DNA from: Syntrophales bacterium
Lineage (GTDB): Bacteria; Desulfobacterota; Syntrophia; Syntrophales; UBA8958
DNA: 64,000 nucleotides
Direction of reading: 5' to 3'
Assembly: GCA_026416455.1 (NCBI GenBank)
Contig: JAOAFE010000004.1
Span: forward strand, 73,468-137,467
The notes under the pieces are model-generated. The model saw nothing but the letters and a program-made list of their open reading frames with translations. It was not told where the DNA came from and did no database searches. A program made the position numbers and the translations under genes. How positions within the stretch are numbered: the first letter of the stretch is position 1; every line of letters starts with the position of its first letter. Shown one piece after another: positions 4,985 to 58,661 of the stretch.

Positions 4985-5010
4985 GGCCCTTACCTTGTCC
5001 GGCGTGAGTC

Positions 5011-5037
5011 TTTATAACGGATACATCTAATTGTCAA
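5011..5037 (-). promoter_or_regulatory. Candidate sigma70-type promoter for the hom operon
   Basis: The minus strand reads TTGACA (5037-5032), a 15-nt spacer, then TATAAA (5016-5011), about 27 nt upstream of the hom ATG. The spacer is short, so this is tentative. Confidence 0.3.
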
Positions 5038-5049
5038 AATAAAACGCCT

Positions 5050-10633: not shown

Positions 10634-12307
10634 TCATGATTTTATGACCGCCCCTTCATCTGAGGCCGAAACGAGTCGGGCGTACAGGGCGAGGTAACCT
10701 GTGGGCAACTGTCGAGTGGGCGGTTGAAAATTTGCCCGCCTCCTCATAAGTTCTGCGTCCGTGAGTTCAACTTCCAGCTTTCTTTCCCCTACATCTATAT
10801 TGATCATATCACCATCTTCAACGAAGGCAATCGTGCCTCCGATGGCTGCTTCTGGTGATAGGTAGCCGATACAAGGGCCGTCACTATACCCGGAAAAACG
10901 ACCGTCCGTTACGAGATAGGTTGTCTCACCTAAACCGGCCAACTTCAAGGCAACACGAACCAGAGCCATCTCCCTCATTCCTGGCCCTCCGACAGGTCCT
11001 TCGTACCTGATAACTATAACATCCCCTGCCTTGATCGCGCCCGCCCCGATCCCCGCGAGGGCTTCTTCTTCGCCGTTGAAGATTTTAGCCGGTCCCCTAA
11101 AGCGCCAAAGATCCTCTTTGACCGCTACTTGCTTGATGACGGCCCCCCTTTCAGCTAAGTTTCCTTTCAAAACGGCAATACCACCGTAAGGATGAACGGG
11201 ATCTGAGAGGGGCCGAATAATCTCGGAGGAGAAAACAGCCGTCGCAGATAGATTTTCCCCTAATGTTTTCCCTGTTACGGTAAGTACTGACCTGTCCAAA
11301 AGACTTTCCATCGCCTTCATAACACCGGGGATACCGCCAGCGTCATCCAACTCGGTGACGGAAAAAGGTCCGGCGGGTTCGACATTAGCGAGGTGTGGAG
11401 TACTACGGGAGAGGCGATCAAAGTCTTCATAAGTTATTGAGAAACCTAACTCATGAGCTAACGCGGGCAGATGCAAGACCGTATTAAGAGAGCCACCAAT
11501 GGCGGCATTGACCTTCAGCGCATTTTCCAAAGCCGACTTCGTCATTATTTTTCTAGGCGTAATATCTCTTTCCAAAAGCTCCATCACCTTCTCTCCCGCC
11601 ATCTCTGCCAGTCTCATTTTTTTAGCCATGACACCAGGGGCCGTACCGTCTCCCGGCAGACTCATTCCTAAAGCCTCCGAGAGACAGGCCATCGTGTTAG
11701 CCGTTCCCATACCCCAACAAGCACCTGCACAGGGATAAAAAGAAGCCAAGGCTTCTTCCCTTATTTCTTCCGAATAAAGCTCAGTAAAAACCTTTTTCAT
11801 CATCTGACCGTAACGAGATACCGATGCCCTTATCCCTTGTCTAGCCCAGTATCCAGCCGGCATGGGACCTCCGGTTACGATGACGGACGGGATGTTTAGC
11901 CTGGCCGCCGCCATTAGTAAAGCGGGTATGATCTTATCGCAGGAACCGATGAAAACGGCGGCATCGTAACAATGGGCATTAATCACACATTCTATCGAAT
12001 AGGTTATTATCTCCCGGCTCGGCAGGGGATACTTCATCCCCGCATGTCCGTTAGCCAAACCGTCACATAGAGCGATGGTGCAAAATTCTGACGGCATCCC
12101 CCCGGCCGTTCTCACCCCCGCTTTCACCCGTTCGGCTATATGCCTCAAATGCTGGTGACCGGGATGCATCTCATTGAACGTATTTACCACCGCTACAAAA
12201 GGTCGCTTGATTTCACCATAATTCCAGCCACAGGCGTAAAGCATCGACCTTCTTACCATTGAAAGTACATCATGATCTGAAAATACATGACTTTTTGCCT
12301 TTTTCAT
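10634..12307 (-). CDS. ilvD: IlvD/Edd-family dehydratase (dihydroxy-acid dehydratase-like)
   Basis: 557 aa. Motifs: SCDKIIP, GGPM, TANTMACLSEALG, GGSLNTVLH, RYEGPVGGPGMREM, TDGRFSG, SPEAAIGG. It is read divergently from the IclR gene. Confidence 0.75.
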   Translation of the reverse strand: MKKAKSHVFSDHDVLSMVRRSMLYACGWNYGEIKRPFVAVVNTFNEMHPGHQHLRHIAERVKAGVRTAGGMPSEFCTIALCDGLANGHAGMKYPLPSREIITYSIECVINAHCYDAAVFIGSCDKIIPALLMAAARLNIPSVIVTGGPMPAGYWARQGIRASVSRYGQMMKKVFTELYSEEIREEALASFYPCAGACWGMGTANTMACLSEALGMSLPGDGTAPGVMAKKMRLAEMAGEKVMELLERDITPRKIMTKSALENALKVNAAIGGSLNTVLHLPALAHELGFSITYEDFDRLSRSTPHLANVEPAGPFSVTELDDAGGIPGVMKAMESLLDRSVLTVTGKTLGENLSATAVFSSEIIRPLSDPVHPYGGIAVLKGNLAERGAVIKQVAVKEDLWRFRGPAKIFNGEEEALAGIGAGAIKAGDVIVIRYEGPVGGPGMREMALVRVALKLAGLGETTYLVTDGRFSGYSDGPCIGYLSPEAAIGGTIAFVEDGDMINIDVGERKLEVELTDAELMRRRANFQPPTRQLPTGYLALYARLVSASDEGAVIKS

Positions 12308-12411
12308 GTTGTCCCTCCCCTTTTTTATTCTTTTTAACTTAAAATATTTTATTTGACAAAAAACTTTTTCAATATTATCGAACTAAGTAAATTAAATCAT
12401 GGGACAACAAC
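12308..12411. promoter_or_regulatory. AT-rich divergent promoter/operator region between the ilvD-like gene and the iclR operon
   Basis: 104 nt, very AT-rich. It contains TTGACA at 12353-12358 (+) with only imperfect -10 candidates (TATTAT with a 14-nt spacer, TATCGA with a 17-nt spacer). It is bounded by the inverted repeat GTTGTCCC (12308-12315) / GGGACAAC (12401-12408). Confidence 0.4.
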
Positions 12412-13176
12412 ATGATTCAATCTGTTACCCGGGCCTTGGAAATTCTCGAAATCTTTCAAAGCGGGGCAGAAAGCGTGGGTATCACAGAAGTTGCCAAACA
12501 TTTAGGAATTTCCAAAGCCGCCGCCTATGCTCTGGTTACGACGCTGGAGAAAAAAAACTTTCTCCAGCAAGACGAAAACTCTCGGAGATACAAACTCGGC
12601 TTTAAAGTCCTTCAGTTGGGTGCCCTGTTCACCAATCAGAGTGAACTAGGCCGAGCCGCCCAACCCTGGGCCGTAGCACTGTGTGACCGATACGGCGAAG
12701 TAGTTCACATATCTGTTTTGGCTAAAGATGCGGCTCTCATCGTCCATCGCTATGAACCGAAGGAACCATTTTTACTCTACCCGCAGCCCGGTTCGACCAT
12801 GCCTCTAAATTCTACAGCGGGAGGCAAGATTCTTCTCGCCTATGCCCCCGTTGAGGTGCAAGAAAAATATTTGAATCAAGCTCCTTTTCCCCAGAGAACT
12901 CCCAACACCATTGTTAAAAAAAACGACCTCCTAAAGGAAATAAAGAATATACTTAAACAAGATTATGCGGAAGATCGAGAGGAAACTATTGTTGGGGTAT
13001 CTTGCGTGGGGGCTCCGATCAGGGACAAATCCGGGCGGGTCATTGCCGCCATTAGTCTCACGGGTTCGCGAACAAGAATGGAGGAAAGGGGTTGGGAAGA
13101 AATAGTGAAATCCGTCAAAATGACGGCCTTACAAATTTCTTCCGCCCTAGGATATCGCATGGATATGGGTCGTTAA
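12412..13176 (+). CDS. IclR-family transcriptional regulator
   Basis: 254 aa with an N-terminal wHTH (RALEILEIF...GITEVAKHLGISKAAAYALVTTL) and a C-terminal IclR effector domain (GVSCVGAPIRD..GRVIAAISLTG). Confidence 0.9.
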   Translation: MIQSVTRALEILEIFQSGAESVGITEVAKHLGISKAAAYALVTTLEKKNFLQQDENSRRYKLGFKVLQLGALFTNQSELGRAAQPWAVALCDRYGEVVHISVLAKDAALIVHRYEPKEPFLLYPQPGSTMPLNSTAGGKILLAYAPVEVQEKYLNQAPFPQRTPNTIVKKNDLLKEIKNILKQDYAEDREETIVGVSCVGAPIRDKSGRVIAAISLTGSRTRMEERGWEEIVKSVKMTALQISSALGYRMDMGR

Positions 13177-13197
13177 AGATTAAAAGGAGGGGGGAAA

Positions 13198-14406
13198 ATG
13201 AAAAAAGGAGGGTATTTGTTTTTTCTTTTTCTAATGGGGGTGCTAATCGTCACGACGGGGACACACCTTAGGGCCGATGAGAATACTATTACCATCGGCT
13301 ACAGTGGTCCTCTCAGTGGTGGAGGTGCCAAGTTTGGGAAAAACCTCCAAATGGGGCTCCAGATGGCCGTTGACCAAGTAAACCAAATGGGCGGTCTGGA
13401 GGTGGCAGGTAAGAAGTACCAAGTGAGGCTGATAAGTTTGGACGATCAGTTTCAGACGGCCCTCACGGTAAGTAACGCGAAAAGACTGGTCCACAAGGAA
13501 GGGGCGAAGATGATCTTCAACCCTTCAAGTGGAGGCATCTTCGGTCTTATGGCCATCAATGAGAAAGAGAAATTTATTATCTGTGCCTACACCACCAATC
13601 AGGTTTGCGTTACTTCGGGCAACAAACTGATCTTTCGGGGGCCACCGGCCATGATGGCTTATGTCCAGGCGTGGGCGAACCGAGCGATGGATAAGTTCGG
13701 TTGGAAGAAGTGTGCCATGATGCCCGATGCTTACGATTACGGCAAGCTATGGAGTGGGCTTTTCGAGAAATACTGGCAGAAGAAAGGCGGTGTAATTACT
13801 ACCCATATTCCCGTTGATTTCATGAAGCTTTCTGATTACTATCCGCTGCTCACTAAAGCCCTAGCTACCAATCCCGATTGTATTCTCATCGGTTCCTCTT
13901 CCGAACCCAATGCCATGCAGGTCAAACAGGCCCGAGAGCTCGGGTTCAGGGGCGGTTTCATCGTCATCGAACGGGGTAAATTGGAAGAGATGCTTCAGTT
14001 TGTACCCGATCCAAACATGTTAAACGGTTCTATTGGCACCTGTCCTCTCATTTTTTATCCAAATCCATCGGCCAAAAAGTTTATCAAGAAATTTAAGGAG
14101 AAATACGGAGCCGATCAGGTACCCGTCCACGAATCTGCGATAGCCTATGCGAATATCATCTACTACCTAGCGGCAATAAAGCTTGCCGGCACTACAACCG
14201 ATGTGTACAAAATAATGGATGCCCTCAAGGACCCCCGTATCCAAAAGATGCCGCTCGTGAAGGAGAATGATCCCTACGAAAATGAAAAGATCTTCCCCAA
14301 TGGGGCAGTCAAAGGTCGGGTCTTAGGGGTGGAGTTCGTAAACGGCAAATTCTCCGATCCATTCCCCGTTCCCACCCCAGATTGGGTATATACGGAAAAA
14401 TATTGA
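13198..14406 (+). CDS. ABC transporter substrate-binding protein, LivK/PBP type-1 (HAAT) family; ligand unknown
   Basis: 402 aa with a signal peptide (LFFLFLMGVLIVTTGTHLRA). ITIGYSGPLSGGGAKFGKN is typical of Peripla_BP_6-type proteins. A strong RBS (AGGAGGGG) precedes the ATG. Confidence 0.85.
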   Translation: MKKGGYLFFLFLMGVLIVTTGTHLRADENTITIGYSGPLSGGGAKFGKNLQMGLQMAVDQVNQMGGLEVAGKKYQVRLISLDDQFQTALTVSNAKRLVHKEGAKMIFNPSSGGIFGLMAINEKEKFIICAYTTNQVCVTSGNKLIFRGPPAMMAYVQAWANRAMDKFGWKKCAMMPDAYDYGKLWSGLFEKYWQKKGGVITTHIPVDFMKLSDYYPLLTKALATNPDCILIGSSSEPNAMQVKQARELGFRGGFIVIERGKLEEMLQFVPDPNMLNGSIGTCPLIFYPNPSAKKFIKKFKEKYGADQVPVHESAIAYANIIYYLAAIKLAGTTTDVYKIMDALKDPRIQKMPLVKENDPYENEKIFPNGAVKGRVLGVEFVNGKFSDPFPVPTPDWVYTEKY

Positions 14407-14419
14407 AACAAATCAGAAC

Positions 14420-14451
14420 CCACCCATCCGGGATTTTTCCCGGATGGGTGG
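14420..14451 (+). promoter_or_regulatory. Intra-operon 14-bp GC-rich stem-loop between the binding-protein gene and the first permease gene
   Basis: CCACCCATCCGGGA tttt TCCCGGATGGGTGG. No U-tract follows; instead the GGGAGG RBS and GTG start of the permease gene come next. It is probably an mRNA-stability or decoupling element rather than a full terminator. Confidence 0.6.
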
Positions 14452-14465
14452 TGGGAGGTTGAATC

Positions 14466-15326
14466 GTGGGAATCCTTTTACAGACTTTAATCAACGGCAT
14501 CATGCTCGGCTCCGTATATGCTATGGTTGCCCTGGGCCTGACCCTCATTTACGGTATCCTCAATGTACCGAACTTTGTCCACGGCACCCTTTATATGATC
14601 GGCGCTTATATTGCCTATTTTGCCATCGTATCCTTCGGAGCACCTTACTGGGTCGGGCTCATCGTATCATTGATTATTCTCTTTGCTATTGGCATCTTGC
14701 TGGAGAGGATTGTATTCCGACCTTTTTACGATAAGCCTCTTATTAACTCCTTTATCGTAGCCGTTGGGCTCATTCTCGTTCTGGAGAATACAGCCCTCAG
14801 CCTCTGGGGACCGGAATTCAGACAGTTTGCCGCTCCGAGCGATAAAGTGATTAAGGTTATGGGTGTAATGATTACGGCGCAACGTATTATTGTCATCGTA
14901 ACGGCCGCCGTTCTTATATGGTTAGTTCACCTATTCATAAAAAAAACACGGTTGGGTTCGGCTATCGAGGCCACCTCCCAAAATCCCGATGGAGCACTCC
15001 TTATGGGTATAAACATAAGCCACATGCGGGGAATAACTTTCGGCATTGGTACGGCTCTGGCCGCGGTGGCAGCGGTATTAGTCGGCCCCATCCTCTTAAT
15101 CTATCCGGCGATGGGTCACACGGTAATAGGCATGGCCTTTGTCATCATTATAATTGGAGGCATGGGTAGTTTCATCGGAGCCGTTTTAGGCGGATATATA
15201 ATCGGTATCCTCGAAACATTAGTTACCTCTTATATAACTAACTTCTTTACCGAGGCCATTATCTTCGGCCTACTCGTGCTTCTACTCGCCGTAAGGCCGA
15301 CAGGGCTGTTCGGGAAGCCGCATTGA
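14466..15326 (+). CDS. livH: HAAT-family ABC permease, LivH-type
   Basis: 286 aa, polytopic, with a GTG start. LQTLINGIMLGSVYAMVALGLTLIYG is the typical LivH N-terminus. Confidence 0.88.
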   Translation: MGILLQTLINGIMLGSVYAMVALGLTLIYGILNVPNFVHGTLYMIGAYIAYFAIVSFGAPYWVGLIVSLIILFAIGILLERIVFRPFYDKPLINSFIVAVGLILVLENTALSLWGPEFRQFAAPSDKVIKVMGVMITAQRIIVIVTAAVLIWLVHLFIKKTRLGSAIEATSQNPDGALLMGINISHMRGITFGIGTALAAVAAVLVGPILLIYPAMGHTVIGMAFVIIIIGGMGSFIGAVLGGYIIGILETLVTSYITNFFTEAIIFGLLVLLLAVRPTGLFGKPH

Positions 15327-15338
15327 TAGGGGAACGCT

Positions 15339-16310
15339 ATGGATAAAAAAAGAAAAGCCCTTTGCCTTGGTGTTCTCATTCTCATTATCCTGATTATCCC
15401 CCTCTTTATAAAAGACGAATATTACCTGCACATCTTGGTGATGAGCGGAATTTGGATTATCTCGGCCCTCTCGCTTAACCTTATTCTCGGCTATGCAGGT
15501 CAATTAAACTTGGCTCAGGGTACATTTTTCGGTATCGGCGCCTATGCTACTGGACTGCTAATGCAGAAAATGGGCCTGTCTTTCTGGGCTGCCTTACCGC
15601 TAGGTTGTCTGCTTACGGCAACGATTGGCTTCGTAACTGGGCTCCCCACTTTGCGCACGAGGGGACATTACTTCCCCATCGCCACCATGTGCCTAGGAAT
15701 AGCCATATATTACGTAATCGCCCGATGGGATGACGTTACAGGCGGGGCTCGAGGGTTATTCGGACTGCCTAGGCCCGATCCGATAGTCATTCCTTTTTTA
15801 GGCACCATATCCTTTGAAAGTACGGCCAGCTGCTATTATCTTGTCTCTTTTCTCGTCTTCATTACGATCGTCGTGATACACCGTCTTATCACATCTCTAT
15901 CCGGCAAACGTCTAATAGCCATTCGAGGCAATGAAGATCTGGCCCAAGCCCTCGGTATAAATACCATGCGGGATAAGGTAATATGTTTTACTATTAGCAC
16001 CTTCTTTGCCGGATTAGCGGGGGGAGTATTCGCCTCCTATATGGGATCCCTTATGGCCGAAAATGCCCACTTCGTCACAAGCTTCGAGATGCTGCTCAAC
16101 GTTATGATCGGTGGTGTCGGTACTATTATCGGTCCTATCATTGGCGCCATTTTTCTGCCCTTGTTGTCGGAGGAATTGCATTTTCTCGGTGGATGGCGCC
16201 TCGTCGTTTATGGCCTCATCCTCATTCTGACCATTAGATTTCTGCCCTTTGGCATCGTAGGGGGCATTCGAACGGCTTTAGCAAAAAGACACGATAAAAG
16301 GGGTGTCTGA
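15339..16310 (+). CDS. livM: HAAT-family ABC permease, LivM-type
   Basis: 323 aa, polytopic. LNLILGYAGQLNLAQGTFFGIGAY is typical of LivM. Confidence 0.88.
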   Translation: MDKKRKALCLGVLILIILIIPLFIKDEYYLHILVMSGIWIISALSLNLILGYAGQLNLAQGTFFGIGAYATGLLMQKMGLSFWAALPLGCLLTATIGFVTGLPTLRTRGHYFPIATMCLGIAIYYVIARWDDVTGGARGLFGLPRPDPIVIPFLGTISFESTASCYYLVSFLVFITIVVIHRLITSLSGKRLIAIRGNEDLAQALGINTMRDKVICFTISTFFAGLAGGVFASYMGSLMAENAHFVTSFEMLLNVMIGGVGTIIGPIIGAIFLPLLSEELHFLGGWRLVVYGLILILTIRFLPFGIVGGIRTALAKRHDKRGV

Positions 16311-17089
16311 TGGATGAATATATCTTAGAAGTCAGAAATCTGACCAAATATTTCGGTGGCCTCAAGGCGATCGATAACGTGTCTTTTAAAATAAACCGGG
16401 GGGAAATTTATAGTATCATCGGCCCTAATGGTGCCGGAAAAACTACCCTATTTAACATGATTACCGGATTTATACCTCCGACAGAAGGTGAAATCTTCTT
16501 CCAAGGACAGAAAATAAATGGGTTGAAACCGTATCAAATCGCCCGTCTGGGTATCGGCCGGACGTTTCAACTGACAACCCTTTTTATGCAAAATACAGTA
16601 TTGGAAAATCTTCTCATAGGGCAAAAACAGACCCGGGAATTCCCTGTTTTTCATTCCATCATGAGTGTCAAAAGGAGACGTGTTAGCCAATCGGAAGCAG
16701 TGGAACGAGCCCATGCGGTAGCTGAGTTCATAGGGTTGGGGACTTTTAAAAACACCATGGCGGCAATCCTGCCCCACGGGGCCCAAAAACAACTCTCCAT
16801 AGGGCTTGCCCTCTCCGGCGATCCGGATCTCATTTTGCTTGACGAACCCCTTGGTGGGGTTGACATGGACGAAATTGACATGATCATCGAACTGATAAAA
16901 AAAATCAGAGATGAAGGAAAAACGATCTGCTTAATAGAACATAAGATGAGGGTGGTCATGAATATCTCTGACCGCATTCTTGCTCTAAGCTACGGTAAGA
17001 AGCTAGTAGAAGATTTGCCGGAAGTTGTTGCTTCTAATGAAGATGTCATTGCTTCGTATTTGGGGGATAGATATGCTGCTCGAGGTTAG
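16310..17089 (+). CDS. livG: HAAT-family ABC ATP-binding protein, LivG-type
   Basis: 259 aa. Walker A GPNGAGKTT, signature-like region, Walker B LILLDEP. TGATG overlap with livM. Confidence 0.9.
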   Translation: MDEYILEVRNLTKYFGGLKAIDNVSFKINRGEIYSIIGPNGAGKTTLFNMITGFIPPTEGEIFFQGQKINGLKPYQIARLGIGRTFQLTTLFMQNTVLENLLIGQKQTREFPVFHSIMSVKRRRVSQSEAVERAHAVAEFIGLGTFKNTMAAILPHGAQKQLSIGLALSGDPDLILLDEPLGGVDMDEIDMIIELIKKIRDEGKTICLIEHKMRVVMNISDRILALSYGKKLVEDLPEVVASNEDVIASYLGDRYAARG

Positions 17090-17783
17090 ACATCTAGATT
17101 GTTATTACGGCCAGTCACAGGCCTTAAAAGAAATTAACATCGAGGTCGAGGAAGGGGAATGCATCTGTATCCTGGGCGCTAATGGGGCCGGAAAGAGTAC
17201 CCTCCTCAAGACGATAGCAGGTCTGATGAAACCACGCCGCGGCGAGATTTGGTTTACAGGGAAGAGAATGGATGAACTTCCTGCTTACACCATAGTGAGG
17301 GAAGGCATAACCCTCTGTCCGGAAGATAAAAAGATATTTCCCCAGATGAGCGTCTATAAAAACTTATGTCTCGGTGCTTGGATTCACGGAAGAAAAGAGG
17401 AGAGGATAAAGGCCAATCTAGAACACGTATATGAGCTCTTTCCCATCTTGAAAGAAAGAAGCGATCAGGACGCAGGCACCCTAAGTGGCGGGGAACAACA
17501 AATGTTAGTCATTGGCAGAAGTCTTATGTCAAATCCTCGCTTGCTCATGCTCGATGAGCCTTCTCTCGGCCTGGCACCGATGGTGGTCAACAGTATCTTT
17601 GAGACAATAAAAGAGATCAACGCCCGAAAAACAACCGTTCTATTAGTCGAACAAAATGCCTCTATGGCTTTGAAAATCGCCACGAGAGGGTATGTTATAG
17701 AGTCGGGACGCATAACTATGGCGGGCACGGCAGAGGAGCTACTTAAAAACGAAAAGGTAAAAAAAGCCTATCTCGGTATTTGA
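17073..17783 (+). CDS. livF: HAAT-family ABC ATP-binding protein, LivF-type
   Basis: The ORF track starts at 17025. I prefer ATG 17073 (MLLEVRHLDCYYG...), which overlaps the livG end by 17 nt. Walker A GANGAGKST, signature LSGGEQQ, Walker B LLMLDEPS. Confidence 0.88.
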   Translation: MLLEVRHLDCYYGQSQALKEINIEVEEGECICILGANGAGKSTLLKTIAGLMKPRRGEIWFTGKRMDELPAYTIVREGITLCPEDKKIFPQMSVYKNLCLGAWIHGRKEERIKANLEHVYELFPILKERSDQDAGTLSGGEQQMLVIGRSLMSNPRLLMLDEPSLGLAPMVVNSIFETIKEINARKTTVLLVEQNASMALKIATRGYVIESGRITMAGTAEELLKNEKVKKAYLGI

Positions 17784-17804
17784 AGCGGCAAGACGGAGGA
17801 TATT

Positions 17805-18539
17805 ATGAGCAAAGTTTCTCTGTTCATCCCGTGTTTGGTCGACATGTTTGCACCTTCCATAGGAATGGCAACCGTTGCCATTTTAGAACGCTTAGGTGTT
17901 GAAACGGTTTATCACGATGAACAAACCTGTTGTGGTCAGCCCGCCCTAAATGCTGGATATGGTAACTATGCTTTAGAAGCGGCGCGCAGGTTTATCTCTA
18001 TTTTCGGTGACGATGAGGTTATCGTTTCGCCCGCAGGTTCTTGTGTTTATATGATAAAAAGATACTATCCCGAGCTTTTAGAGGATGATCCCCTTTACCC
18101 AATGGCGGTAGACCTTTCATCTCGGGTATATGAATTAAGTCAGTATCTCGTAGACGTGTTGGATATCACAGATGTCGGGGCCCAATATGAAGGTAAGGTC
18201 GCCTACCACGAATCCTGCCATATTTTGCGGGGACTAGGCATCTCCCGTCAGCCCAAAGTCCTGCTTTCTAAAGTGAAAGGAACCGAAATAGTCCCTCTCT
18301 TTGCCGCCGAGATGTGTTGTGGCTTTGGCGGAGAGTTCGCCGATCGTTACCACTACATCTCCGAAGAGATGGTCAAAGACAAGGTAAACAACTTCCAAGC
18401 GAGCGGTGCGGACGTGCTGATTACCTGTGAACCGGGATGTTATCTCAATTTAAACGGATTCCTCCACAGGCAACAGGAAAATAAGAAAGTACTCCACCTC
18501 GCCCAATTGTTGGCAGGTCCGGAATTTCAGGGGTTATGA
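17805..18539 (+). CDS. lutA: LutA (YkgE)-type Fe-S oxidoreductase with CCG domains
   Basis: 244 aa. VSLFIPCLVD...EQTCCGQP...ESCH...CCGFGG is the typical CCG-domain pattern. Confidence 0.88.
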   Translation: MSKVSLFIPCLVDMFAPSIGMATVAILERLGVETVYHDEQTCCGQPALNAGYGNYALEAARRFISIFGDDEVIVSPAGSCVYMIKRYYPELLEDDPLYPMAVDLSSRVYELSQYLVDVLDITDVGAQYEGKVAYHESCHILRGLGISRQPKVLLSKVKGTEIVPLFAAEMCCGFGGEFADRYHYISEEMVKDKVNNFQASGADVLITCEPGCYLNLNGFLHRQQENKKVLHLAQLLAGPEFQGL

Positions 18540-18540
18540 A

Positions 18541-19986
18541 ATGAAGATTAGGACCGAAGAGTTTAACTCCATCGCAAAAAAAGAAATAAACAATGCCTAT
18601 GCGAGGGCTTTTTTGGGTCTGCTCCCGCCAATTATCGCTATGCGCCGCGTCCAGGTCATGAGCTCCTTCCCCAATCCCGACCAAGCCCTGAAACTTTCTC
18701 GGGCGATAAGAAGTGAATCAATCGCTCGACTTCCGGACCTATTGGAAGAATTCGAGCAAAAGGCGACGAAAAGTGGGGCAAAAGTTTTGTGGGCAAAGGA
18801 TGCCCAAGAGGCGAGAAAATTAGTCCTTTCTCTCATTCGGGACCGAGGAGCCACCTTTGTCACAAAAGGAAAATCGATGGTGACGGAGGAAATTGGTCTC
18901 AACGAAGCCCTGGAGCAGGCCCAGATAGAACCCATCGAGACCGATCTCGGAGAATTTATTGCCCAGCAATTAAACCGTCCTCCTTTTCACATTGTCGGTC
19001 CCGCCATAAACGTACCGGTGGAAGAAATCAGAGACCTCTTTCTCCGCGAGGGTATAATGAAAGAGGATACCACCGATCCCGTTCAGCTTGGATATGCGGC
19101 ACGTATTTATTTGCGAGACAAATTTCACCATATTAAAGTTGGGCTGACAGGCGTCAATATGGCAGTGGCCGAAACAGGTACGATTATAAACGTGGAAAAC
19201 GAAGGGAATATAAGGTTCAACAAATCTTCGCCGATAACCCAAATCTCCATTATGACTCCGGAGAAGGTCGTTCCCTCTTTGCGGGACGCGATGCATATAA
19301 TCAGGCTTCTTTGCCGTAGTTGCACAGGTCAGAAGATTTCAGCCTATGTTACCCTGGATACGGGACCCAAGAAGGCGGGAGAAATAGACGGACCGGAAGA
19401 ACTATACATTATTATCGTAGATAACGGCCGGTCAGAAATCTACGCCAATCCGCGGACAAGAGAAGTTCTCAGGTGCATAAGATGTGGTGCCTGCCTTAAC
19501 ACCTGTCCCGTTTACACCAAAATAGGTGGGTATCCCTATGGGTGGGCCTATTCAGGACCCATGGGTCAAATACTAAATCCGCTCCTTCTCGGTCTCGATC
19601 GCACCCAGGACCTGTATAGAGCATGTACCCAATGTGGTACCTGTCGAGATATCTGTCCCGGTGGTATTGATCATCCAGCGCTTTTTCTCTACTACCGGTC
19701 TTGCGATGTTGAAGGAAACGAAAAGCTGGCCGGCAAGAAAAGGCCCCGGTCGGAAAGGATTTCTTTTTCTCTCTGGGGTCTGGCCGTAAAAAACAAGTTA
19801 CTTTGGAATACGGCTCTCCGTTTAGGACGTTTCCTAACAAAGAAATATTCATCCGACGGATGGCTCACGAATTTGGGCCGGTTATTTCCCGGTTGGTTTA
19901 AAGAAAGGGATTTTCCGAGCATAAGCGACTCAACGTTTCGGGAACGATGGAAAGAAATGAGGAAAGGCAAATATGGACACCCGTAA
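18541..19986 (+). CDS. lutB: LutB (YkgF)-type iron-sulfur protein (LUD domain plus 2x[4Fe-4S])
   Basis: 481 aa. CIRCGACLNTCPVY and CTQCGTCRDICP follow a LUD/DUF162 region. There is a 1-nt gap after lutA. Confidence 0.88.
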   Translation: MKIRTEEFNSIAKKEINNAYARAFLGLLPPIIAMRRVQVMSSFPNPDQALKLSRAIRSESIARLPDLLEEFEQKATKSGAKVLWAKDAQEARKLVLSLIRDRGATFVTKGKSMVTEEIGLNEALEQAQIEPIETDLGEFIAQQLNRPPFHIVGPAINVPVEEIRDLFLREGIMKEDTTDPVQLGYAARIYLRDKFHHIKVGLTGVNMAVAETGTIINVENEGNIRFNKSSPITQISIMTPEKVVPSLRDAMHIIRLLCRSCTGQKISAYVTLDTGPKKAGEIDGPEELYIIIVDNGRSEIYANPRTREVLRCIRCGACLNTCPVYTKIGGYPYGWAYSGPMGQILNPLLLGLDRTQDLYRACTQCGTCRDICPGGIDHPALFLYYRSCDVEGNEKLAGKKRPRSERISFSLWGLAVKNKLLWNTALRLGRFLTKKYSSDGWLTNLGRLFPGWFKERDFPSISDSTFRERWKEMRKGKYGHP

Positions 19987-20641
19987 AGAGATAATAAATC
20001 GCCTGAGAAGTGCTCCTCGATCGTCATCGGAACCCAGACCCGACGTGCCACCTCTTCCTGAACTAGCCCTGGGACGAAGTGAGCTAATCCAAAAGCTCAT
20101 GGACGAACTGACAAAACTCGAGGTGTCCTGTCATCGGGTGGTAAGAGAAGAGGTACGGGAAAAGCTAGCAGAAATATTGGTCGGAGAAGGCATAACTAAG
20201 GTCATAGTGTCAAACGATAGGATAGTTTCAGCCTTCGATCTTTCCGCGTGGGGAAAGGAACGGGGTTTTATGGTCTATCGCTCTTCCGATTTTAATGATC
20301 GAGACACTTTAAAACGGGTCGTCTTTGAAGAAGTTGAAGCCGGTGTGACGGGCGTTGACTTTGCCGTCGCCGAAAGCGGTACCTTGGGGATAATTCATGA
20401 CCATAATCAACCTCGCCTCGTTTCGCTTGCCCCCGTTACCCATATTGCGCTAGTACCAACCTCGAAGGTGGTACCCATCTACGAGCAGGTGGTGGACGAG
20501 GTATTCTTGAAAGGAGGTAACATACCATCTCAGTTTACCTTCATTACCGGCCCCAGTATGACGGCCGACATCAAGGCGACTCCTTTCAAGGGCATGCATG
20601 GACCCAGACGTTTGATCGCAATAATTTACGATGACGATTAG
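19973..20641 (+). CDS. lutC: LutC (YkgG)-type LUD-domain protein
   Basis: 222 aa with a 14-nt overlap with lutB. GVTGVDFAVAESGTL...TGPSMTADI is typical of the LUD domain. Confidence 0.85.
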   Translation: MDTRKEIINRLRSAPRSSSEPRPDVPPLPELALGRSELIQKLMDELTKLEVSCHRVVREEVREKLAEILVGEGITKVIVSNDRIVSAFDLSAWGKERGFMVYRSSDFNDRDTLKRVVFEEVEAGVTGVDFAVAESGTLGIIHDHNQPRLVSLAPVTHIALVPTSKVVPIYEQVVDEVFLKGGNIPSQFTFITGPSMTADIKATPFKGMHGPRRLIAIIYDDD

Positions 20642-20650
20642 GAGAAAAGA

Positions 20651-21904
20651 ATGATCACGTTGAGCGTTCCTTCACGTCTCTGGTACGAAAATGTGGAGAG
20701 GGAGTTGAGTTTTCCCGATCACTGGGAAATCGAGAATCTCACCTCTCCCGGATTGGAAAAGAAAGAAATCTCCTCCGATGAAATAAGGGCGAAAATAGAA
20801 AAACCAATCGCCGGTCCAGACCTATCCACCCTCGCCAAAGGAAAGAGGGAAGCGGTCATCATCTTCGATGACATGACGCGCCCCACACCGGTTAAGGATG
20901 TAATCCCCCACGTCCTGGAAATACTGCATCAGGCGGGCTTAGGGCGCGATCAGATAAGATTCATCTGGGCTTTAGGTTCTCACGGAGCCTACGATATGAT
21001 CAATGCTCGCAAAAAACTAGGTGATTATGTCGTAGAAAACTATGCAGTTTACAATCACGATCCTTTCCAGAATACAGTTCGTCTCGGTCGAACCCCCACG
21101 GGGGTGGAGGTATGGATTAACCGAGAAGTTATGGGCTGTGATCTGAAAATAGGCATCGGTTGCATTACCCCCCACGTCCATGTGGGTTTTGGCGGTGGAG
21201 GAAAGATAATACTACCCGGTGTTGCGGGAATCGAATCCATCAATCAATTCCATAATCGCCTCTACCACGACCCCACTCGAACGGGATTGGGAAATTTCGA
21301 TCAGAACATTATGCGGTTGGAATGTGATGCCGCCGCCTCTTTAGTCGGACTGGACTATAAGATAGACTGTCTTGTCAACCGACGCGGCAAAATTACCAAT
21401 CTTTACGCCGGTCCCTTCCAGTTAACTCACAGCGCCGGTGCTACCGAGGGAAAAGACCATTACGGTATTATCACTGCCGGTAATTTCGATATCGCCATCT
21501 GCAACTCATACGCTAAAGCTAATGAAGCCGCCATTGCCCTCTTGCTCGCCTTAAGTGTGCTCAAACTCGATGGCTCTGGAACGGCCGTCCTCATCTCCGA
21601 TGCCCCCGAAGGACAAGTACCCCATTACGTGATGAGGGCTTGGGGATCCAACTATGGTGGTCGTCATTTTACACCCAAAGAAAAGGGCGGCAAGTCGGCC
21701 GTCGCTTTCTTGAAAAAACTCATCGTTCTCGCTCCCCACCCAGATCGGACGATGCTCGATTTAGTTTGTCATCCCGATGACGCGATCATCGTTAAGACCT
21801 GGGAAGAGGTGCTTGAGATACTATCCATGGATTATTCGAAAAAGGCCAGGGTCGCCGTCATTCCCGACGGTACAATGCAATACGTAAAAAAACCGGTATC
21901 GTGA
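20651..21904 (+). CDS. LarA-family (nickel-pincer dependent) 2-hydroxy-acid racemase/epimerase homologue
   Basis: 417 aa with a DUF2088-like N-terminus. Motifs: IIFDDMTRPTP, ALGSHG, ITPHVHVGFGGGGKIILPG, QFHN. These resemble the LarA active-site segments in a by-eye alignment. Confidence 0.8.
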   Translation: MITLSVPSRLWYENVERELSFPDHWEIENLTSPGLEKKEISSDEIRAKIEKPIAGPDLSTLAKGKREAVIIFDDMTRPTPVKDVIPHVLEILHQAGLGRDQIRFIWALGSHGAYDMINARKKLGDYVVENYAVYNHDPFQNTVRLGRTPTGVEVWINREVMGCDLKIGIGCITPHVHVGFGGGGKIILPGVAGIESINQFHNRLYHDPTRTGLGNFDQNIMRLECDAAASLVGLDYKIDCLVNRRGKITNLYAGPFQLTHSAGATEGKDHYGIITAGNFDIAICNSYAKANEAAIALLLALSVLKLDGSGTAVLISDAPEGQVPHYVMRAWGSNYGGRHFTPKEKGGKSAVAFLKKLIVLAPHPDRTMLDLVCHPDDAIIVKTWEEVLEILSMDYSKKARVAVIPDGTMQYVKKPVS

Positions 21905-21935
21905 CCAATCCACAACCTACGAGGAGGTTCGTTTA

Positions 21936-23042
21936 ATGGAAGAAAAGAAGCTAACGCGGGGACAGCAAGAGGTACGTGAAAAAGTAATTTCTCTAGGTTT
22001 ATGCACAGGATGTGGCGCGTGCATTAACCTATGCCCGTACTTTCGTTCCCATCGAGGAAAAACATCTATTTTGTTTCCCTGCACCGTTGAGAACGGACGC
22101 TGTTTCGCCTTTTGTCCCAAAATCGAGGTCGATTTGGATAACCTTTCCCTCTCCATTTTTGACCAACCTTACGACGGCAATGCCTTGGGCAGGTACCGTT
22201 CAATTTTCACCGCAAAGGCCGGAGAGAAAATAAAATCCTTCGAAGCCCAGGCAGGAGGTACGGTTTCATCCCTCGTCTATTATGCATTGACGAAAGGCTA
22301 TATCTCCGGGGCCGTCCTCACAGATCGCCGAGGGTTAGAACCGATACCGAGATACGTTACGAACGCGGAAGATGTGTTTTCTTGCAGCCAGTCCAAATAT
22401 ACCGCAGCTCCCACTCTGGCCGTTGTGAACGAAGTTGTGGAAAAAGGAGAAGTAAATATCGGCGTAGTGGGTACCCCCTGCCAGATACTGGCTTTGGCCC
22501 AAATGAAAACTCGTGAAAAACCATATCCCATTTCGCTTTCGATAGGGCTTTTCTGCACTTGGGCCATTGATTTTCGTCTTTTTGAACCCTTCATATCGAG
22601 GTGGATCCAAGCAAGCCATATTCGAAAAGTTGATATCCCACCACCTCCGGCTGAAATACTCCAGATTTTTACCTCTCAAGGGGAAAAAATAGAAATCCCT
22701 CTCTCCGAGATTCGTCCCCTCGTTCCGAAAGGGTGTGCCTACTGTATGGACATGACTTCCGAGTTTTCAGATATCTCTGTGGGAGTCTTGGAGGGCCGCC
22801 CTGATATGAACACTCTCATCGTTCGGACGGAACGCGGTCAGAAACTTGTCGATGAAGCCATCAAAGAAGGGTATCTCATCGTCTCCGATATGCCCAAAGA
22901 AAATCTTGAACACCTCCTTTGGGCAGCGGGAAACAAAAAACAGAGGGCACTGAAGCGGGCGAGTGATGAAAATCTAATAAACTGCGAGTCCTTATCCTAC
23001 TTGCGCCTCAAAGGCGAATTACTAAATCAGCTGACTCAATGA
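21936..23042 (+). CDS. FrhB/FdhB-family (coenzyme F420 hydrogenase/dehydrogenase beta-like) flavo-iron-sulfur protein
   Basis: 368 aa. It has an N-terminal ferredoxin-like CTGCGACINLCP...CFAFCP, the GTPCQ motif, and C-terminal CAYCMDMTSEFSDISVG. Confidence 0.8.
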   Translation: MEEKKLTRGQQEVREKVISLGLCTGCGACINLCPYFRSHRGKTSILFPCTVENGRCFAFCPKIEVDLDNLSLSIFDQPYDGNALGRYRSIFTAKAGEKIKSFEAQAGGTVSSLVYYALTKGYISGAVLTDRRGLEPIPRYVTNAEDVFSCSQSKYTAAPTLAVVNEVVEKGEVNIGVVGTPCQILALAQMKTREKPYPISLSIGLFCTWAIDFRLFEPFISRWIQASHIRKVDIPPPPAEILQIFTSQGEKIEIPLSEIRPLVPKGCAYCMDMTSEFSDISVGVLEGRPDMNTLIVRTERGQKLVDEAIKEGYLIVSDMPKENLEHLLWAAGNKKQRALKRASDENLINCESLSYLRLKGELLNQLTQ

Positions 23043-23055
23043 AGGGAGGTCATCC

Positions 23056-24993
23056 ATGTCTCACTTATTAGATCCAAAAGCAGGCGCAACTTATCTGTTA
23101 ATGGGAAATGAAGCCATCGTAAGGGGAGCGCTGGAAGCAGGCGTCAACGTTGCCAGTGGTTATCCGGGAACCCCCTCTTCGGAAATCATAGAAAACCTTT
23201 CACGTATTGCAAAAGAAAGAAACATCTACGTGGAATGGTCGGTAAATGAAAAGGTGGCCCTTGAAGTTGCCGCCGCCGCATCTTTCGCTGGACTGCGTTC
23301 CCTGTGCGCCATGAAACAAAACGGTGTCAATGTGGCCTCAGATTTTCTCCTTCACCTTGTATATTCCGGAACCAGAGGAGGAATAGTACTAGTTTCTTGT
23401 GACGATCCGGGTGCATTATCCAGTGTCAACGAGGGAGAATCAAGATACTTTGCCCGCCAATTGGAAATGCCTCTGTTGGAGCCGGGCAATTTTCAGGAAG
23501 CCAAAGATATGACCAAATGGGCGTTCGAGCTTTCGGAACAGTTGAAACAAATTGTCATGTTACGCAGTGTAACTCGTATGTCTCATGCAAGCGGTAACGT
23601 GTCATACGGAGCGCTACCGGAGACCAAACGCAAAGCCGAGTTTAAATTCAAAGGTTTCATCCTCGACCCGGAGGAAGGAATAATTACGAGTGCACCCGTC
23701 GAATGGCGACATAAAGAGCAACAAGATAAAATAAGAAAAGCAAAAGAAATCTTCGAAGAATCGCCTTTCAACACCTATGAGGGGCCGGATAAGCCCGAAC
23801 TTTTAATTATTACGAGCAGTGCATGTTACTTGTACAGCAAAGAAGCTGTAGAGGTGCTCAACGTACAAGACCGGGTGGGCATCCTTAAGTTGGGTACGAC
23901 ATGGCCATTGCCGCCTAAACTGGTAACACATTATCTCGCCAGAACGGAACAAGTTATGATTGTGGAAGAAGTCATCCCCTTTATGGAGGAAAACGTGAAA
24001 GTGCTGGCCGCGGAAAAGGCTGGTGAGATAGGAGCAAAGAAATTCTTCGGGAAGAACGAAGGTGTGCTACCTTCGGTTGGAGAGATGAACCCTGATTTTG
24101 TAATAAGCGCTATTTCCTCTATTTTGGGAATAGACTATTCACCCGTTTCCAAAGAGTATGATCAATCGGCCAAACTGTCAGCCTTTGTGCACGCTCCAGC
24201 CAGAGATCAGGTCTTCTGTCCCGGATGTCCCCATCGTGCCTCTTTCTTTGCCATTCGCCGGGCAATAGAACTAGACGGTCGCAATGGTTTCGTTTGTGGT
24301 GACATAGGATGTTACACCATGGCCGTCAGACCAACGGGATTCGAAACCTTAAAGACGGTTCATTCGATGGGGTCCGGCATGGGCTTGGCAAGTGGTTTCG
24401 GTAAGTTAGGGCTTTTCGGCATGGATCAACCGACCTTTGCGGTTTGCGGCGACTCAACCTTTTACCACGCCGTAATACCCGCCTTGATCAACGCCGTCCA
24501 TAATAAATCTAACGTAACTCTCGTTATTCTCGATAATGGCGGAACGGCGATGACAGGTTTTCAACCGCATCCAGGTCAAGATTTTAATGTAATGGGCGAA
24601 AGTATGCCCGCCATCGATATGGCCCGTATCTGTGAAGCCATCGGTGCCCGAGTTGAAAAAAGAAATCCCTTAGATTTAGAGGACACCCTCCATACCCTGC
24701 TCGAGATGATGGAAGATAAAAACGGAGTCAAAGTGCTCATTCTAAGTCAATATTGTGCCTTAAGTCCCCAAAGGAGAGGGAAAAAAGACTATGAACTTTC
24801 GGTCGATGAAACGGTGTGCTTGGGAGAAGAATGCGGTTGTGGAAGATTCTGCACACGAATCTTCCGATGCCCTGGTCTCGTCTGGAACAAAGAAAAGGCA
24901 AAAGCCGAAATAGACCAGGTGATATGCGTTGGTTGTGGGGTGTGTGCTGATATTTGCCCGCGGGGTGCAATCAAGCGGAAGGAGGTGGCCTAA
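23056..24993 (+). CDS. iorA: Indolepyruvate:ferredoxin oxidoreductase alpha subunit, divergent paralogue
   Basis: 645 aa. Motifs: GNEAIVRGALEAGVNVASGYPGTPSSEI, GDIGCYT, GDSTFYH, DNGGTAMTG, and a C-terminal CVGCGVCADICP ferredoxin module. It starts 13 nt after the FrhB-like gene and has a GGGAGG RBS. Confidence 0.88.
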   Translation: MSHLLDPKAGATYLLMGNEAIVRGALEAGVNVASGYPGTPSSEIIENLSRIAKERNIYVEWSVNEKVALEVAAAASFAGLRSLCAMKQNGVNVASDFLLHLVYSGTRGGIVLVSCDDPGALSSVNEGESRYFARQLEMPLLEPGNFQEAKDMTKWAFELSEQLKQIVMLRSVTRMSHASGNVSYGALPETKRKAEFKFKGFILDPEEGIITSAPVEWRHKEQQDKIRKAKEIFEESPFNTYEGPDKPELLIITSSACYLYSKEAVEVLNVQDRVGILKLGTTWPLPPKLVTHYLARTEQVMIVEEVIPFMEENVKVLAAEKAGEIGAKKFFGKNEGVLPSVGEMNPDFVISAISSILGIDYSPVSKEYDQSAKLSAFVHAPARDQVFCPGCPHRASFFAIRRAIELDGRNGFVCGDIGCYTMAVRPTGFETLKTVHSMGSGMGLASGFGKLGLFGMDQPTFAVCGDSTFYHAVIPALINAVHNKSNVTLVILDNGGTAMTGFQPHPGQDFNVMGESMPAIDMARICEAIGARVEKRNPLDLEDTLHTLLEMMEDKNGVKVLILSQYCALSPQRRGKKDYELSVDETVCLGEECGCGRFCTRIFRCPGLVWNKEKAKAEIDQVICVGCGVCADICPRGAIKRKEVA

Positions 24994-24996
24994 GAA

Positions 24997-25617
24997 ATGA
25001 CGACAAGCAAGCTTCCTAAAGATCCTTATAGCATTGTCATCACTGGAGTGGGGGGGCAAGGAAATGTTATGGCCTCTCGTGTACTTGCGAACATGCTGGT
25101 AAAAAAAGGATACTATGTTACCATCGGAGAGACTTTTGGTGCTTCTCAGCGCGGTGGATCGGTGATGAGTCACATCCGCGTATCCAACCTCTCCGCCTGG
25201 AGTCCCCAAATACCGGCGGGAAAGGCCCACTTAGTCGTAGCCTTAGAACCCATTGAGGCCATCAGAGTGCTCGCTCGTTACGGGAATCCGGATATTAAAG
25301 TGCTTTCTAACCTAAGGCCCATCTATCCGGCAGGAGTAATTGCTGGGGAAGCCTCTTATCCCAATGAACAGGAGATAAGAACAATTTTAGAAAAGCATAC
25401 ATCGAAATATTGGCTCATTAAAGCCACAGAAGAAGCCGTAAAATTAGGTAATCCCATCCTGGCAAATGTTATGATGGTCGGAGCTACTTGTGCCATCGGG
25501 GATCTTCCCTTCGACAGAAATGATTTTATAGATGCCATGTCTCAAGTCTTATCGGGTGACAAAATGGAAACAAACATAAAAGCCTTCGAGTTAGGATTCT
25601 CTTTACTCATGAAATAA
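24997..25617 (+). CDS. iorB: Indolepyruvate:ferredoxin oxidoreductase beta subunit (POR-gamma-type domain)
   Basis: 206 aa. IVITGVGGQGNVMASRVLA...GETFGASQRGGSV is the typical IorB pattern. There is a 3-nt gap after iorA. Confidence 0.88.
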   Translation: MTTSKLPKDPYSIVITGVGGQGNVMASRVLANMLVKKGYYVTIGETFGASQRGGSVMSHIRVSNLSAWSPQIPAGKAHLVVALEPIEAIRVLARYGNPDIKVLSNLRPIYPAGVIAGEASYPNEQEIRTILEKHTSKYWLIKATEEAVKLGNPILANVMMVGATCAIGDLPFDRNDFIDAMSQVLSGDKMETNIKAFELGFSLLMK

Positions 25618-25629
25618 ACCATTAAAAAC

Positions 25630-25658
25630 GGGGGGTATGTCTGCTACCCCCCTTTTTT
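25630..25658 (+). terminator. Rho-independent terminator closing the 13-gene operon
   Basis: GGGGGGTA tgtctgc TACCCCCC followed by TTTTTT, that is, an 8-bp GC-rich stem, a 7-nt loop and a U-tract. Confidence 0.85.
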
Positions 25659-25948: not shown

Positions 25949-25952
25949 CACT

Positions 25953-58658: not shown

Positions 58659-58661
58659 ATT

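Follow-up and report, generated by a model that had tools for sequence, protein, structure and literature searches.

We analyzed a 64,000-nt stretch of contig JAOAFE010000004.1 from a Syntrophales bacterium (hereafter, the window), in which 13 genes on the + strand, at 12412-25617, encode an IclR-family regulator, a five-gene ABC importer of the HAAT/Liv type, a LutABC-like Fe-S complex, a LarA-like protein, an FrhB-like protein and an IorAB-like oxidoreductase; an ilvD gene lies divergently upstream. Together these genes are best read as a composite catabolic operon for an imported small carboxylic acid, of the 2-hydroxy and/or 2,3-dihydroxy type, that would yield acyl-CoA. We rate this reading slightly above even odds, at a probability of about 0.55. 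A preliminary description of the same DNA had proposed uptake, D/L interconversion, oxidation and conversion to acyl-CoA. This core logic is upheld by gene context, and the points concerning the FrhB-like protein, IlvD and aryl-lactates have been changed, as described below.

In the proposed pathway, the acid would be taken up by the HAAT-type importer, which consists of a periplasmic substrate-binding protein (SBP) and LivHMGF-like components. A nickel-pincer enzyme of the LarA family would invert the stereocenter at C2, making both stereoisomers usable. The 2-hydroxy acid would be oxidized to the 2-oxo acid by the LutABC-like complex, and a 2,3-dihydroxy form would reach the 2-oxo acid through dehydration by the divergently encoded IlvD. 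An enzyme composed of the FrhB-like protein, IorA and IorB would then decarboxylate the 2-oxo acid oxidatively to acyl-CoA, with the FrhB-like protein taking electrons from the IorA clusters and handing them on to a two-electron carrier, either in place of free ferredoxin or in addition to it. IclR would govern both divergent promoters. The transporter, the lutABC, larA and dehydratase genes, and frhB-iorAB would represent separable modules.

The open reading frames (ORFs) agree with the coordinates originally given for all 13 genes and ilvD. From iclR to iorB, the junctions measure 21, 59, 12, -1, -17, 21, 1, -14, 9, 31, 13 and 3 nt, as expected from the range of -17 to +59 nt in the preliminary description. 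The 17-nt overlap between livG and livF is also present in the gene calls of L001 (homologous loci are designated by L and a number). A purine-rich Shine-Dalgarno-like stretch precedes most of the genes, but is weak or absent at iclR and livM. We found no internal terminator within the operon 5' of 25630, where an intrinsic terminator begins on the + strand (25630-25658; 8-bp stem with six GC pairs, 7-nt loop and T6). Its sequence, GGGGGGTA-7 nt-TACCCCCC followed by TTTTTT, has a fold energy of -18.7 kcal/mol (z = -3.4), in line with the strong terminator claimed earlier. A terminator-like hairpin and T-run are also in place in L007 and L001, and a conserved promoter-like box (TTGC-AAAA...TATAAT-like), which would serve the next genes, follows. 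We predict that the 13 genes are co-transcribed. Classification of the proteins with profile models, a check named in the preliminary description, upheld, with Pfam and NCBIfam, the family call of every operon gene and of ilvD.

L001, L007 and L110, whose LarA proteins are 81-87% identical to that of the window, have all 13 genes in identical order and between the same flanks. More distant lineages carry the same family set in other gene orders, and also with paralogues, so that a search for co-located LarA, LutABC and IorAB genes, likewise suggested beforehand, returned a recurrent but shuffled set. Both the identical order in relatives and this recurrence indicate that the arrangement is not a chance juxtaposition. 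One alternative is that independent modules are merely adjacent, namely an unrelated transporter, a Lut/LarA pair and a stand-alone FrhB-IorAB. This would be consistent with the facts that FrhB-IorAB usually occurs alone, that the LarA clade is found in many contexts and that only close relatives (L001, L007 and L110) share the exact order of the 13 genes. However, the family set recurs in at least 10 further loci, in other orders or as paralogues (L008, L009, L057, L084, L089, L106, L108, L120, L174 and L145), which random adjacency does not predict, and the intergenic gaps are very tight and free of terminators up to 25630. We therefore regard mere adjacency as quite improbable.

The enzyme proposed to act on C2 is encoded by the larA-like gene (20651-21904). 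Its product matches Lar_N (DUF2088, PF09861) with 176 bits against a cutoff of 23.3, although this Pfam match covers the N-terminal domain only. Among NCBIfam models, the best score was obtained with LarAH6-MAR (malate racemase; 201.5 vs 500), followed by LarA (187.1 vs 460), LarAH5 (159.6 vs 462) and LarAH10 (142.5 vs 540); the protein falls into none of the characterized specificity groups (LAR, MAR, HGR, GntE and HHR). In a profile alignment, R75, H108, H174, K184 and H200 of LarA1 (5HUQ) correspond to R77, H111, H175, K185 and H201 of the LarA-like protein. Thus, the residues that bind the nickel-pincer nucleotide (LarA1 R75, K184 and H200) and both catalytic histidines (H108 and H174) are retained, and none of the five varies among 16 clade members. 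The AlphaFold model aligned with full-length LarA structures at TM scores of 0.73-0.78 and E values of ~1e-23 (top Foldseek matches, 6C1W, 9EIA, 5HUQ and 8EZF). Because the catalytic and cofactor residues as well as the LarA fold are retained, the protein is plausibly an active nickel-pincer 2-hydroxy-acid racemase or epimerase.

With the LarA superfamily (LarA1, Sar, Mar1/2, Hgr, GntE and HHR; PMC7583248, PMC11770544), the window protein shares Lar_N, the five residues and the whole fold. Unlike the characterized groups, it scores far under all of the models, and it differs at the two loop positions that contribute to specificity. Positions 175/176 are V/H, matching none of the reported pairs: lactate racemases have F/F, Sar has L/M or F/M, 2-hydroxyglutarate racemases have Y/F and gluconate epimerases have E/V (PMC11770544, PMC7583248). 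We also attempted to map the C-terminal specificity residues (LarA1 W358 and T359), but the HMMER alignments end near residue 322 and the model has low confidence in that region. The best 120 of 2,147 matches to the LarA-like protein (E <= 1e-30) each share at least 69% identity with it, and their named sources are Desulfobacterota-type metagenome-assembled genomes. A relative is encoded in 232 stretches of species-representative genomes.

Three adjacent genes upstream of larA encode a LutA-like Fe-S protein with two CCG domains (17805-18539; PF02754 twice, matching the C-terminal part of LdhH), a LutB-like protein (18541-19986; LUD, 4Fe-4S dicluster and LutB_C) and a LutC-like protein (19973-20641; LUD, PF02589), reproducing the LutABC architecture. 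LutB scored 375.8 bits against TIGR00273 (LutB/LldF), under the equivalog cutoff of 444.8. As LutB, IorA, IorB, the SBP and the LarA homologue all lie under NCBIfam equivalog cutoffs, the names LutABC and IorAB are uninformative about the substrate. Accordingly, from their scores we file these proteins as family members and not as lactate or indolepyruvate enzymes.

These families could alternatively make up a plain D/L-lactate operon, in which LarA would racemize lactate, LutABC would oxidize L-lactate to pyruvate, and the IorAB-type enzyme would act as a pyruvate oxidoreductase to give acetyl-CoA. In the luo operon of Desulfovibrio vulgaris, L-lactate oxidation of the LldEFG/LutABC type is clustered with a 2-oxoacid:ferredoxin oxidoreductase. 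The window operon resembles this lactate operon in combining a LutABC-type complex, a thiamine pyrophosphate (TPP)/Fe-S 2-oxoacid oxidoreductase and an uptake system in one unit, and in the logic of converting a hydroxy acid to a 2-oxo acid and then to acyl-CoA. LutABC is, moreover, the canonical L-lactate system, and LarA homologues are labeled 'lactate racemase' in public sources. Glycerate and 2-hydroxybutyrate are further substrates of lactate racemases (PMC11770544). By contrast, the window operon has an HAAT ABC importer and no lactate permease, a racemase in place of a separate D-lactate dehydrogenase, an IOR (indolepyruvate oxidoreductase)-type enzyme with an FrhB-like protein in place of a pyruvate:ferredoxin oxidoreductase, and a dehydratase partner, and it lacks pta/ack. 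The LutB score under the lactate cutoff, the 187 bits against 460 for the lactate racemase model, and V/H at the positions occupied by F/F in lactate racemases all argue against lactate, as does a dehydratase that is a near-constant partner (21/23 loci) and has no role in lactate use. A lactate operon is thus distinctly unlikely.

The dehydratase emerged from analysis of what travels with this LarA clade. We searched 80 species-level loci with the window proteins and clustered the neighboring genes. In 23 of the 80, lutABC (scored by the presence of lutB) directly precedes the LarA gene, and 10 contain frhB-iorAB. A split dehydratase (SAF, 92 aa, and GD_AH, 389 aa, by Pfam) is encoded 3' of the LarA-like gene in 29 loci (e.g., L010, L012, L013 and L019), and an IlvD-family gene is present in five. 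A UxaA-like or IlvD-family dehydratase occurs in 21 of the 23 lutB-positive loci, and in all five loci (5/5) that have both lut and ior genes. In a neighbor-joining (NJ) tree of the clade, gene context tracks subclade, and members of the subclade that includes the window protein have lutABC and a dehydratase wherever the flanks permit. Among the Lut-type members of this subclade, those without a UxaA-like gene are the window and L007; in both, ilvD adjoins instead.

Other subclades are accompanied by genes for HGD-D proteins, an activator and a CoA-transferase, or by MarR, DsrE, CCG and ECF-transporter genes. Because context follows subclade in the NJ tree, the subclades may differ in substrate, and the clade as a whole may cover more than one. 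The HGD-D proteins encoded near some LarA homologues could be dehydratases or reductases alike, and we did not build on them. One subclade (L050, L061-L063, L066, L067, L080 and L085) sits beside genes for MarR, a DsrE-like protein, a CCG/4Fe-4S protein, a membrane protein, MsrAB and a QueT-like ECF transporter, and no Lut, IOR or dehydratase gene was found beside its members. In four LarA-anchored loci, a gene of the diaminopimelate-dehydrogenase family directly follows the split dehydratase. The split SAF and GD_AH arrangement is presumably that of SuyAB (sulfolactate sulfo-lyase). Sulfolactate was set aside as a substrate of the window operon: the split dehydratase is only a weak match to GarD in NCBIfam, we found no literature link between LarA and SuyAB, and the genes are lacking in the window. 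It is kept as a side idea for the sister loci with the split dehydratase only.

Pairing of a racemase with a dehydratase has precedents. In the context table of Desguin et al., LarAH group 5 is accompanied by an altronate-dehydratase-family gene (100%), and group 22 by IlvD/Edd (30%), TRAP and IclR genes. The window protein resembles both groups in its dehydratase pairing and differs in lying beside LutB/LutC, HAAT and IOR genes; COGs for LutB, LutC, IOR, FrhB and HAAT are listed for no LarAH group in the supplementary context table of that study. When we tried to place the window clade among these groups through the table, no group matched.

The dehydratase of the window is encoded by ilvD (10634-12307, - strand; ILVD_EDD_N and ILV_EDD_C), the product of which scored 658.3 against TIGR00110 (cutoff, 618.15) and 659.1 against NF002068 (cutoff, 644), thus exceeding the ilvD equivalog cutoffs. 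The preliminary description correctly recognized this IlvD/Edd-family gene as divergent but treated it as a neighbor only, a view that does not fit its context elsewhere. In L079, an orthologue of 73% identity is embedded in a co-directional lutABC-LAR-SAF-UxaA-ilvD-SBP-livHMGF array, and in L173 an IlvD orthologue is divergent from a transporter orthologue of 67% identity, the rest of the set being lacking there. L174 contains a paralogous set of co-directional genes with short gaps, ilvD(43%)-larA(39%)-frhB(47%)-iorA-iorB-lutA-lutB-lutC-SBP(55%); L145 has frhB-iorAB-larA(39%)-ilvD(43%), and L008 has ilvD(47%)-frhB-iorAB-lutAB-LAR. Because a dehydratase is present in 21/23 loci, because IlvD alone fills this slot in the window, and because its orthologue and paralogues lie inside the operons of L079, L174, L145 and L008, the window IlvD probably belongs to the hydroxy-acid system as its dehydratase arm, and may serve both biosynthetic and operon roles. 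With IlvD in the system, 2,3-dihydroxy acids would be likely substrates besides plain 2-hydroxy acids.

An IlvD above the biosynthetic equivalog cutoffs, among surrounding genes that are largely biosynthetic, would also suit an anabolic direction, in which FrhB-IorAB would reductively carboxylate acyl-CoAs to 2-oxo acids for amino-acid synthesis; IOR does run reductively in some methanogens. Under such a scheme, however, the importer, the racemase and the LutABC-type oxidase would have no obvious role, and the frequent ECH, 3-hydroxyacyl-CoA dehydrogenase and CoA-ligase neighbors indicate catabolism. We consider the anabolic direction highly improbable, and favor the catabolic one.

The last three genes of the operon encode the FrhB-like flavin/Fe-S protein (21936-23042), a TPP/Fe-S alpha subunit (iorA-like, 23056-24993; POR_N, TPP_enzyme_C and Fer4) and a beta subunit (iorB-like, 24997-25617; PF01558, POR). 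We collected 84 FrhB-anchored loci, of which 55 have at least 1.5 kb 3' of frhB and were therefore testable. In all 55, iorA lies downstream of frhB on the same strand, within 300 nt in 50 loci and within ~600 nt of the alignment end in the others. Four of four individual locus look-ups confirmed the order frhB-iorA-iorB, with 15-18 nt between frhB and iorA. The IorA proteins of other triads are 54-89% identical to the window IorA. The FrhB-like protein is probably no pathway step of its own; it is the invariant upstream partner of this IorAB subfamily. As the frhB-iorA-iorB triad is fixed, the FrhB-like protein is probably the third subunit of a diverged IOR, a flavin/Fe-S protein for electron output.

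The domain composition of the FrhB-like protein is in keeping with this role. Its best solved relative is 8RIU_B (1.4e-38, residues 13-338 aligned with 12-342), and it has Fer4, FrhB_FdhB_N and FrhB_FdhB_C domains, with an N-terminal 2x[4Fe-4S] ferredoxin domain as in the zeta subunit of 8RIU; the cysteine motifs are invariant in 14 homologues. The FrhB and FpoF equivalog models gave scores under their cutoffs. 8RIU_B is the zeta subunit of the carbon monoxide dehydrogenase (CODH) of Ca. Ethanoperedens, which combines a two-cluster ferredoxin domain with an FAD/[4Fe-4S] F420-reductase domain and which, docked on the enzyme, redirects electrons from it to F420 (PMC11493965). The window protein shares its three-part architecture of ~370 aa with the F420-reducing CODH and formylmethanofuran dehydrogenase of this archaeon (8RIU and 8RJA; PMC11493965), but its predicted partner is a bacterial 2-oxoacid oxidoreductase, and F420, NAD(P)+ or another compound would be the candidate acceptor. 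Since the 8RIU subunit redirects electrons of an otherwise ferredoxin-dependent enzyme, we propose the same role for the FrhB-like protein.

IorA and IorB have the architecture of canonical IorAB (alpha with POR_N, TPP_C and Fer4; beta with POR), and their best NCBIfam matches are IOR_alpha and IOR_beta. Unlike the canonical two-subunit enzyme, both subunits score under the equivalog cutoffs (614.9 vs 650.9 for IOR_alpha and 158.4 vs 205.8 for IOR_beta) and are accompanied by the invariant third gene, frhB. A second IorA is encoded at 1-1344 on the - strand, cut by the window edge. It reaches 578.8 bits with IOR_alpha over only 448 aa, and is thus more canonical, and is only 38% identical to the operon IorA. 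It has no adjoining frhB, and a gene for a TPR protein comes next (1357-2034).

In about 10 of 44 long loci, a LarA-like gene lies near the triad, and lutABC is also present in five of them (L089, L106, L108, L110 and L120). Another architecture was observed in L099, L103, L104 and L109, where genes for ECH, 3-hydroxyacyl-CoA dehydrogenase, a TRAP transporter (DctP/Q/M) and a D-isomer-specific 2-hydroxyacid dehydrogenase precede frhB, iorA and iorB in this order; by Pfam, a LarA-family gene follows the cluster in three of the four (L099, L103 and L109). TRAP transporters mostly carry organic-acid anions. From its gene content, this arrangement appears to be a non-orthologous parallel to the window operon, comprising an organic-acid importer, a 2-hydroxy-acid oxidizer, a racemase and the same oxidoreductase. 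In L090, the triad is flanked 5' by a D-2-hydroxyacid dehydrogenase gene and, just 3', by a class I/II aminotransferase gene.

The importer has its full complement of parts by Pfam and NCBIfam: an SBP (13198-14406; Peripla_BP_6), a livH-type permease (14466-15326; BPD_transp_2, with LivH and UrtB matches under cutoff), a livM-type permease (15339-16310; BPD_transp_2, with a LivM match under cutoff), a livG-type ATPase (16310-17089; ABC_tran and BCA_ABC_TP_C, 242.9 bits for LivG vs a cutoff of 362) and a livF-type ATPase (17073-17783; ABC_tran), which starts at the ATG at 17073 behind a Shine-Dalgarno-like sequence. The SBP scored 56.2 bits against the LivJ/K subfamily model NF011933 (cutoff, 477) and is accordingly not a LivJ/LivK-type protein by this model. 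Its closest solved structures reach only ~1e-16 and have mixed ligands, too distant for inferring the ligand from them.

Orthologues of the SBP, 55-74% identical to it, were examined in five contexts. One adjoins lutABC-LAR (L010), one adjoins ilvD (L173), one (55%) lies within the whole paralogous set (L174), one adjoins genes for HGD-D proteins, a family-III CoA transferase and an acyl-CoA ligase (L171), and one adjoins genes for an acyl-CoA ligase and a split B12 mutase with MeaB (L172). No aminotransferase gene was found beside the SBP orthologue in these five contexts. Thus, these contexts point to a carboxylic acid as ligand more than to an amino acid, and weakly to a branched or short aliphatic skeleton. 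In L172, the split B12 mutase (564 aa plus a 132-aa B12-binding subunit) and MeaB are encoded at 3352-6520, upstream of the acyl-CoA ligase and of a transporter orthologue of 63% identity. We presume that this split architecture is that of an isobutyryl-CoA mutase; if so, it would be a hint of branched-chain acids as the cargo of the transporter family.

The same transporter family would also fit an amino-acid system, in which the Liv-type importer would take up branched-chain or aromatic amino acids, a transaminase encoded elsewhere would produce the 2-oxo acids for FrhB-IorAB to convert to acyl-CoA, and LutABC and LarA would salvage 2-hydroxy by-products. Membership of the transporter in Liv/HAAT, the aminotransferase gene 3' of the triad in L090, the place of IlvD in branched-chain amino-acid metabolism, and the M16 and M20 peptidases, Opp-type ATPases and M17 aminopeptidase encoded nearby in the window are in its favor. 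On the other hand, no aminotransferase or amino-acid dehydrogenase gene was found in the operon, in the three syntenic relatives or, as stated above, in the five SBP contexts. The 56 bits of the SBP against 477 for the LivJ/K model and the presence of a TRAP transporter, typically for organic-acid anions, in the parallel architecture also argue against amino acids. An amino-acid system is therefore unlikely, and a hydroxy-acid operon remains our preferred reading.

As to the substrate of that operon, our order of preference is a guess: branched-chain or C4 acids, then C3 acids (lactate and glycerate), and then aryl-lactates. The branched-chain and C4 candidates that we would guess at are 2-hydroxyisovalerate, 2,3-dihydroxyisovalerate, and 2-hydroxy- or 2,3-dihydroxybutyrate. 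Of the two options named in the preliminary description, aryl-lactate or a branched-chain acid, the former is favored by nothing that we found and the latter is kept as such a guess.

Several points weigh against a hydroxy-acid operon. The whole pathway has been assembled from sequence and gene context, and there is no evident need for an oxidase (LutABC) and a dehydratase together. IlvD passes housekeeping equivalog cutoffs and sits among biosynthetic genes (purMN and pfk), and its adjacency could thus be incidental or reflect a shared theme of branched-chain amino-acid metabolism. About half of the LarA clade occurs in unrelated contexts. The AlphaFold model of the LarA-like protein has a mean pLDDT of only 70.8, with low confidence around the active-site loops at 173-215, and none of larB, larC and larE was found among the scanned ORFs of the window. 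In other genomes the triad is mostly alone, so that its link to Lut and LarA is facultative. F420, the acceptor in the archaeal relative, is to our knowledge not typical of this group.

The AT-rich, 104-nt spacer between the divergent ilvD and iclR genes (12308-12411) is the putative control region. A TTGACA and a TATTA-C box are kept in the window, L007 and L001, and the spacer contains an AT-rich palindrome at 12328-12363. We predict that IclR (12412-13176; HTH_IclR and IclR_C) binds in this region. The best NCBIfam matches of this regulator are BhcR, PcaR and KdgR, each far under cutoff. The start regions of ilvD and iclR (12304-12315 and 12401-12415), which flank the spacer, are near-identical inverted copies, TCATGTTGTCCC and GGGACAACA(ACA)TGA; either a common context for translation initiation or an inverted repeat with a regulatory role could account for this. 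Within the operon, the 59-nt gap between the SBP gene and livH contains a GC-rich hairpin on the + strand (14420-14451) with a perfect 14-bp stem, a fold energy of -32.3 kcal/mol (z = -4.25) and no T-run on that strand. Judged from the alignment, G+C-rich self-complementary stretches that differ in sequence lie at the same position in L007, L001 and L010. This hairpin may be a transcript-stabilizing or differential-expression element behind the SBP gene.

The rest of the window is mostly housekeeping, including purMN, pfk, phoH, ybeY, surA, and arg, dap and lysA genes. Just 3' of the terminator, a separate unit (25697-30102, + strand) comprises an 83-aa ORF without a family match, two M16 peptidase genes and an M20 hydrolase gene (NF010589, 543.9 vs 333). 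L001 and L007 share this unit in synteny, and its own promoter-like box is conserved. Two Opp-type ABC ATPase genes (ABC_tran and oligo_HPY) and an M17 leucyl aminopeptidase gene at 34517-37930 (- strand) hint at peptide use. Two adjacent HGD-D genes are located 32 kb from the operon (57447-59834, - strand). Their best NCBIfam matches are HadB and HadC of (R)-2-hydroxyisocaproyl-CoA dehydratase, with 310 and 198 bits, far under the cutoffs. The pair could specify a further 2-hydroxyacyl-CoA dehydratase, or else a related reductase.

A literature search found no paper describing the cluster, the LarA clade or the FrhB-IOR enzyme, in agreement with the earlier remark that no characterized operon of this composition was recognized. 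The enzyme families are known; the combination, the racemase clade and the three-gene oxidoreductase are without prior characterization. As routine annotations, 'lactate racemase', 'F420 hydrogenase beta subunit', 'branched-chain amino acid transporter' and 'indolepyruvate oxidoreductase' probably all mislead here.

Taken jointly, the gene contexts allow a broader and more tentative proposal, which we consider possible but doubtful: a class of three-subunit FrhB-IOR enzymes in Desulfobacterota, together with a new LarA clade of C2 epimerases that would feed Fe-S dehydratases of the IlvD or UxaA type. If this is true, a docked FrhB-like subunit would turn an IOR-type enzyme away from free ferredoxin, in more than 540 metagenomic loci, as a bacterial counterpart to the F420-reducing CODH and Fwd complexes of ethane-oxidizing archaea. 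If the hydroxy-acid reading holds, a new electron-output design for 2-oxoacid oxidoreductases would bear on how syntrophs handle low-potential electrons. The large LarA clade, with a relative in more than 230 species-level genomes and no characterized member, would acquire a function.

In methanogenic sediments and digesters, Syntrophales and related Desulfobacterota, most of them uncultured, have a key role in degradation. Through a racemase-dehydratase/oxidase-IOR route, these syntrophs would use both stereoisomers of 2,3-dihydroxy and 2-hydroxy acids, and chiral hydroxy and dihydroxy acids would be catabolized with one racemase rather than with paired D- and L-specific dehydrogenases. Both the FrhB-IorAB triad and the racemase-dehydratase pairing are concrete features, found widely and open to direct test.

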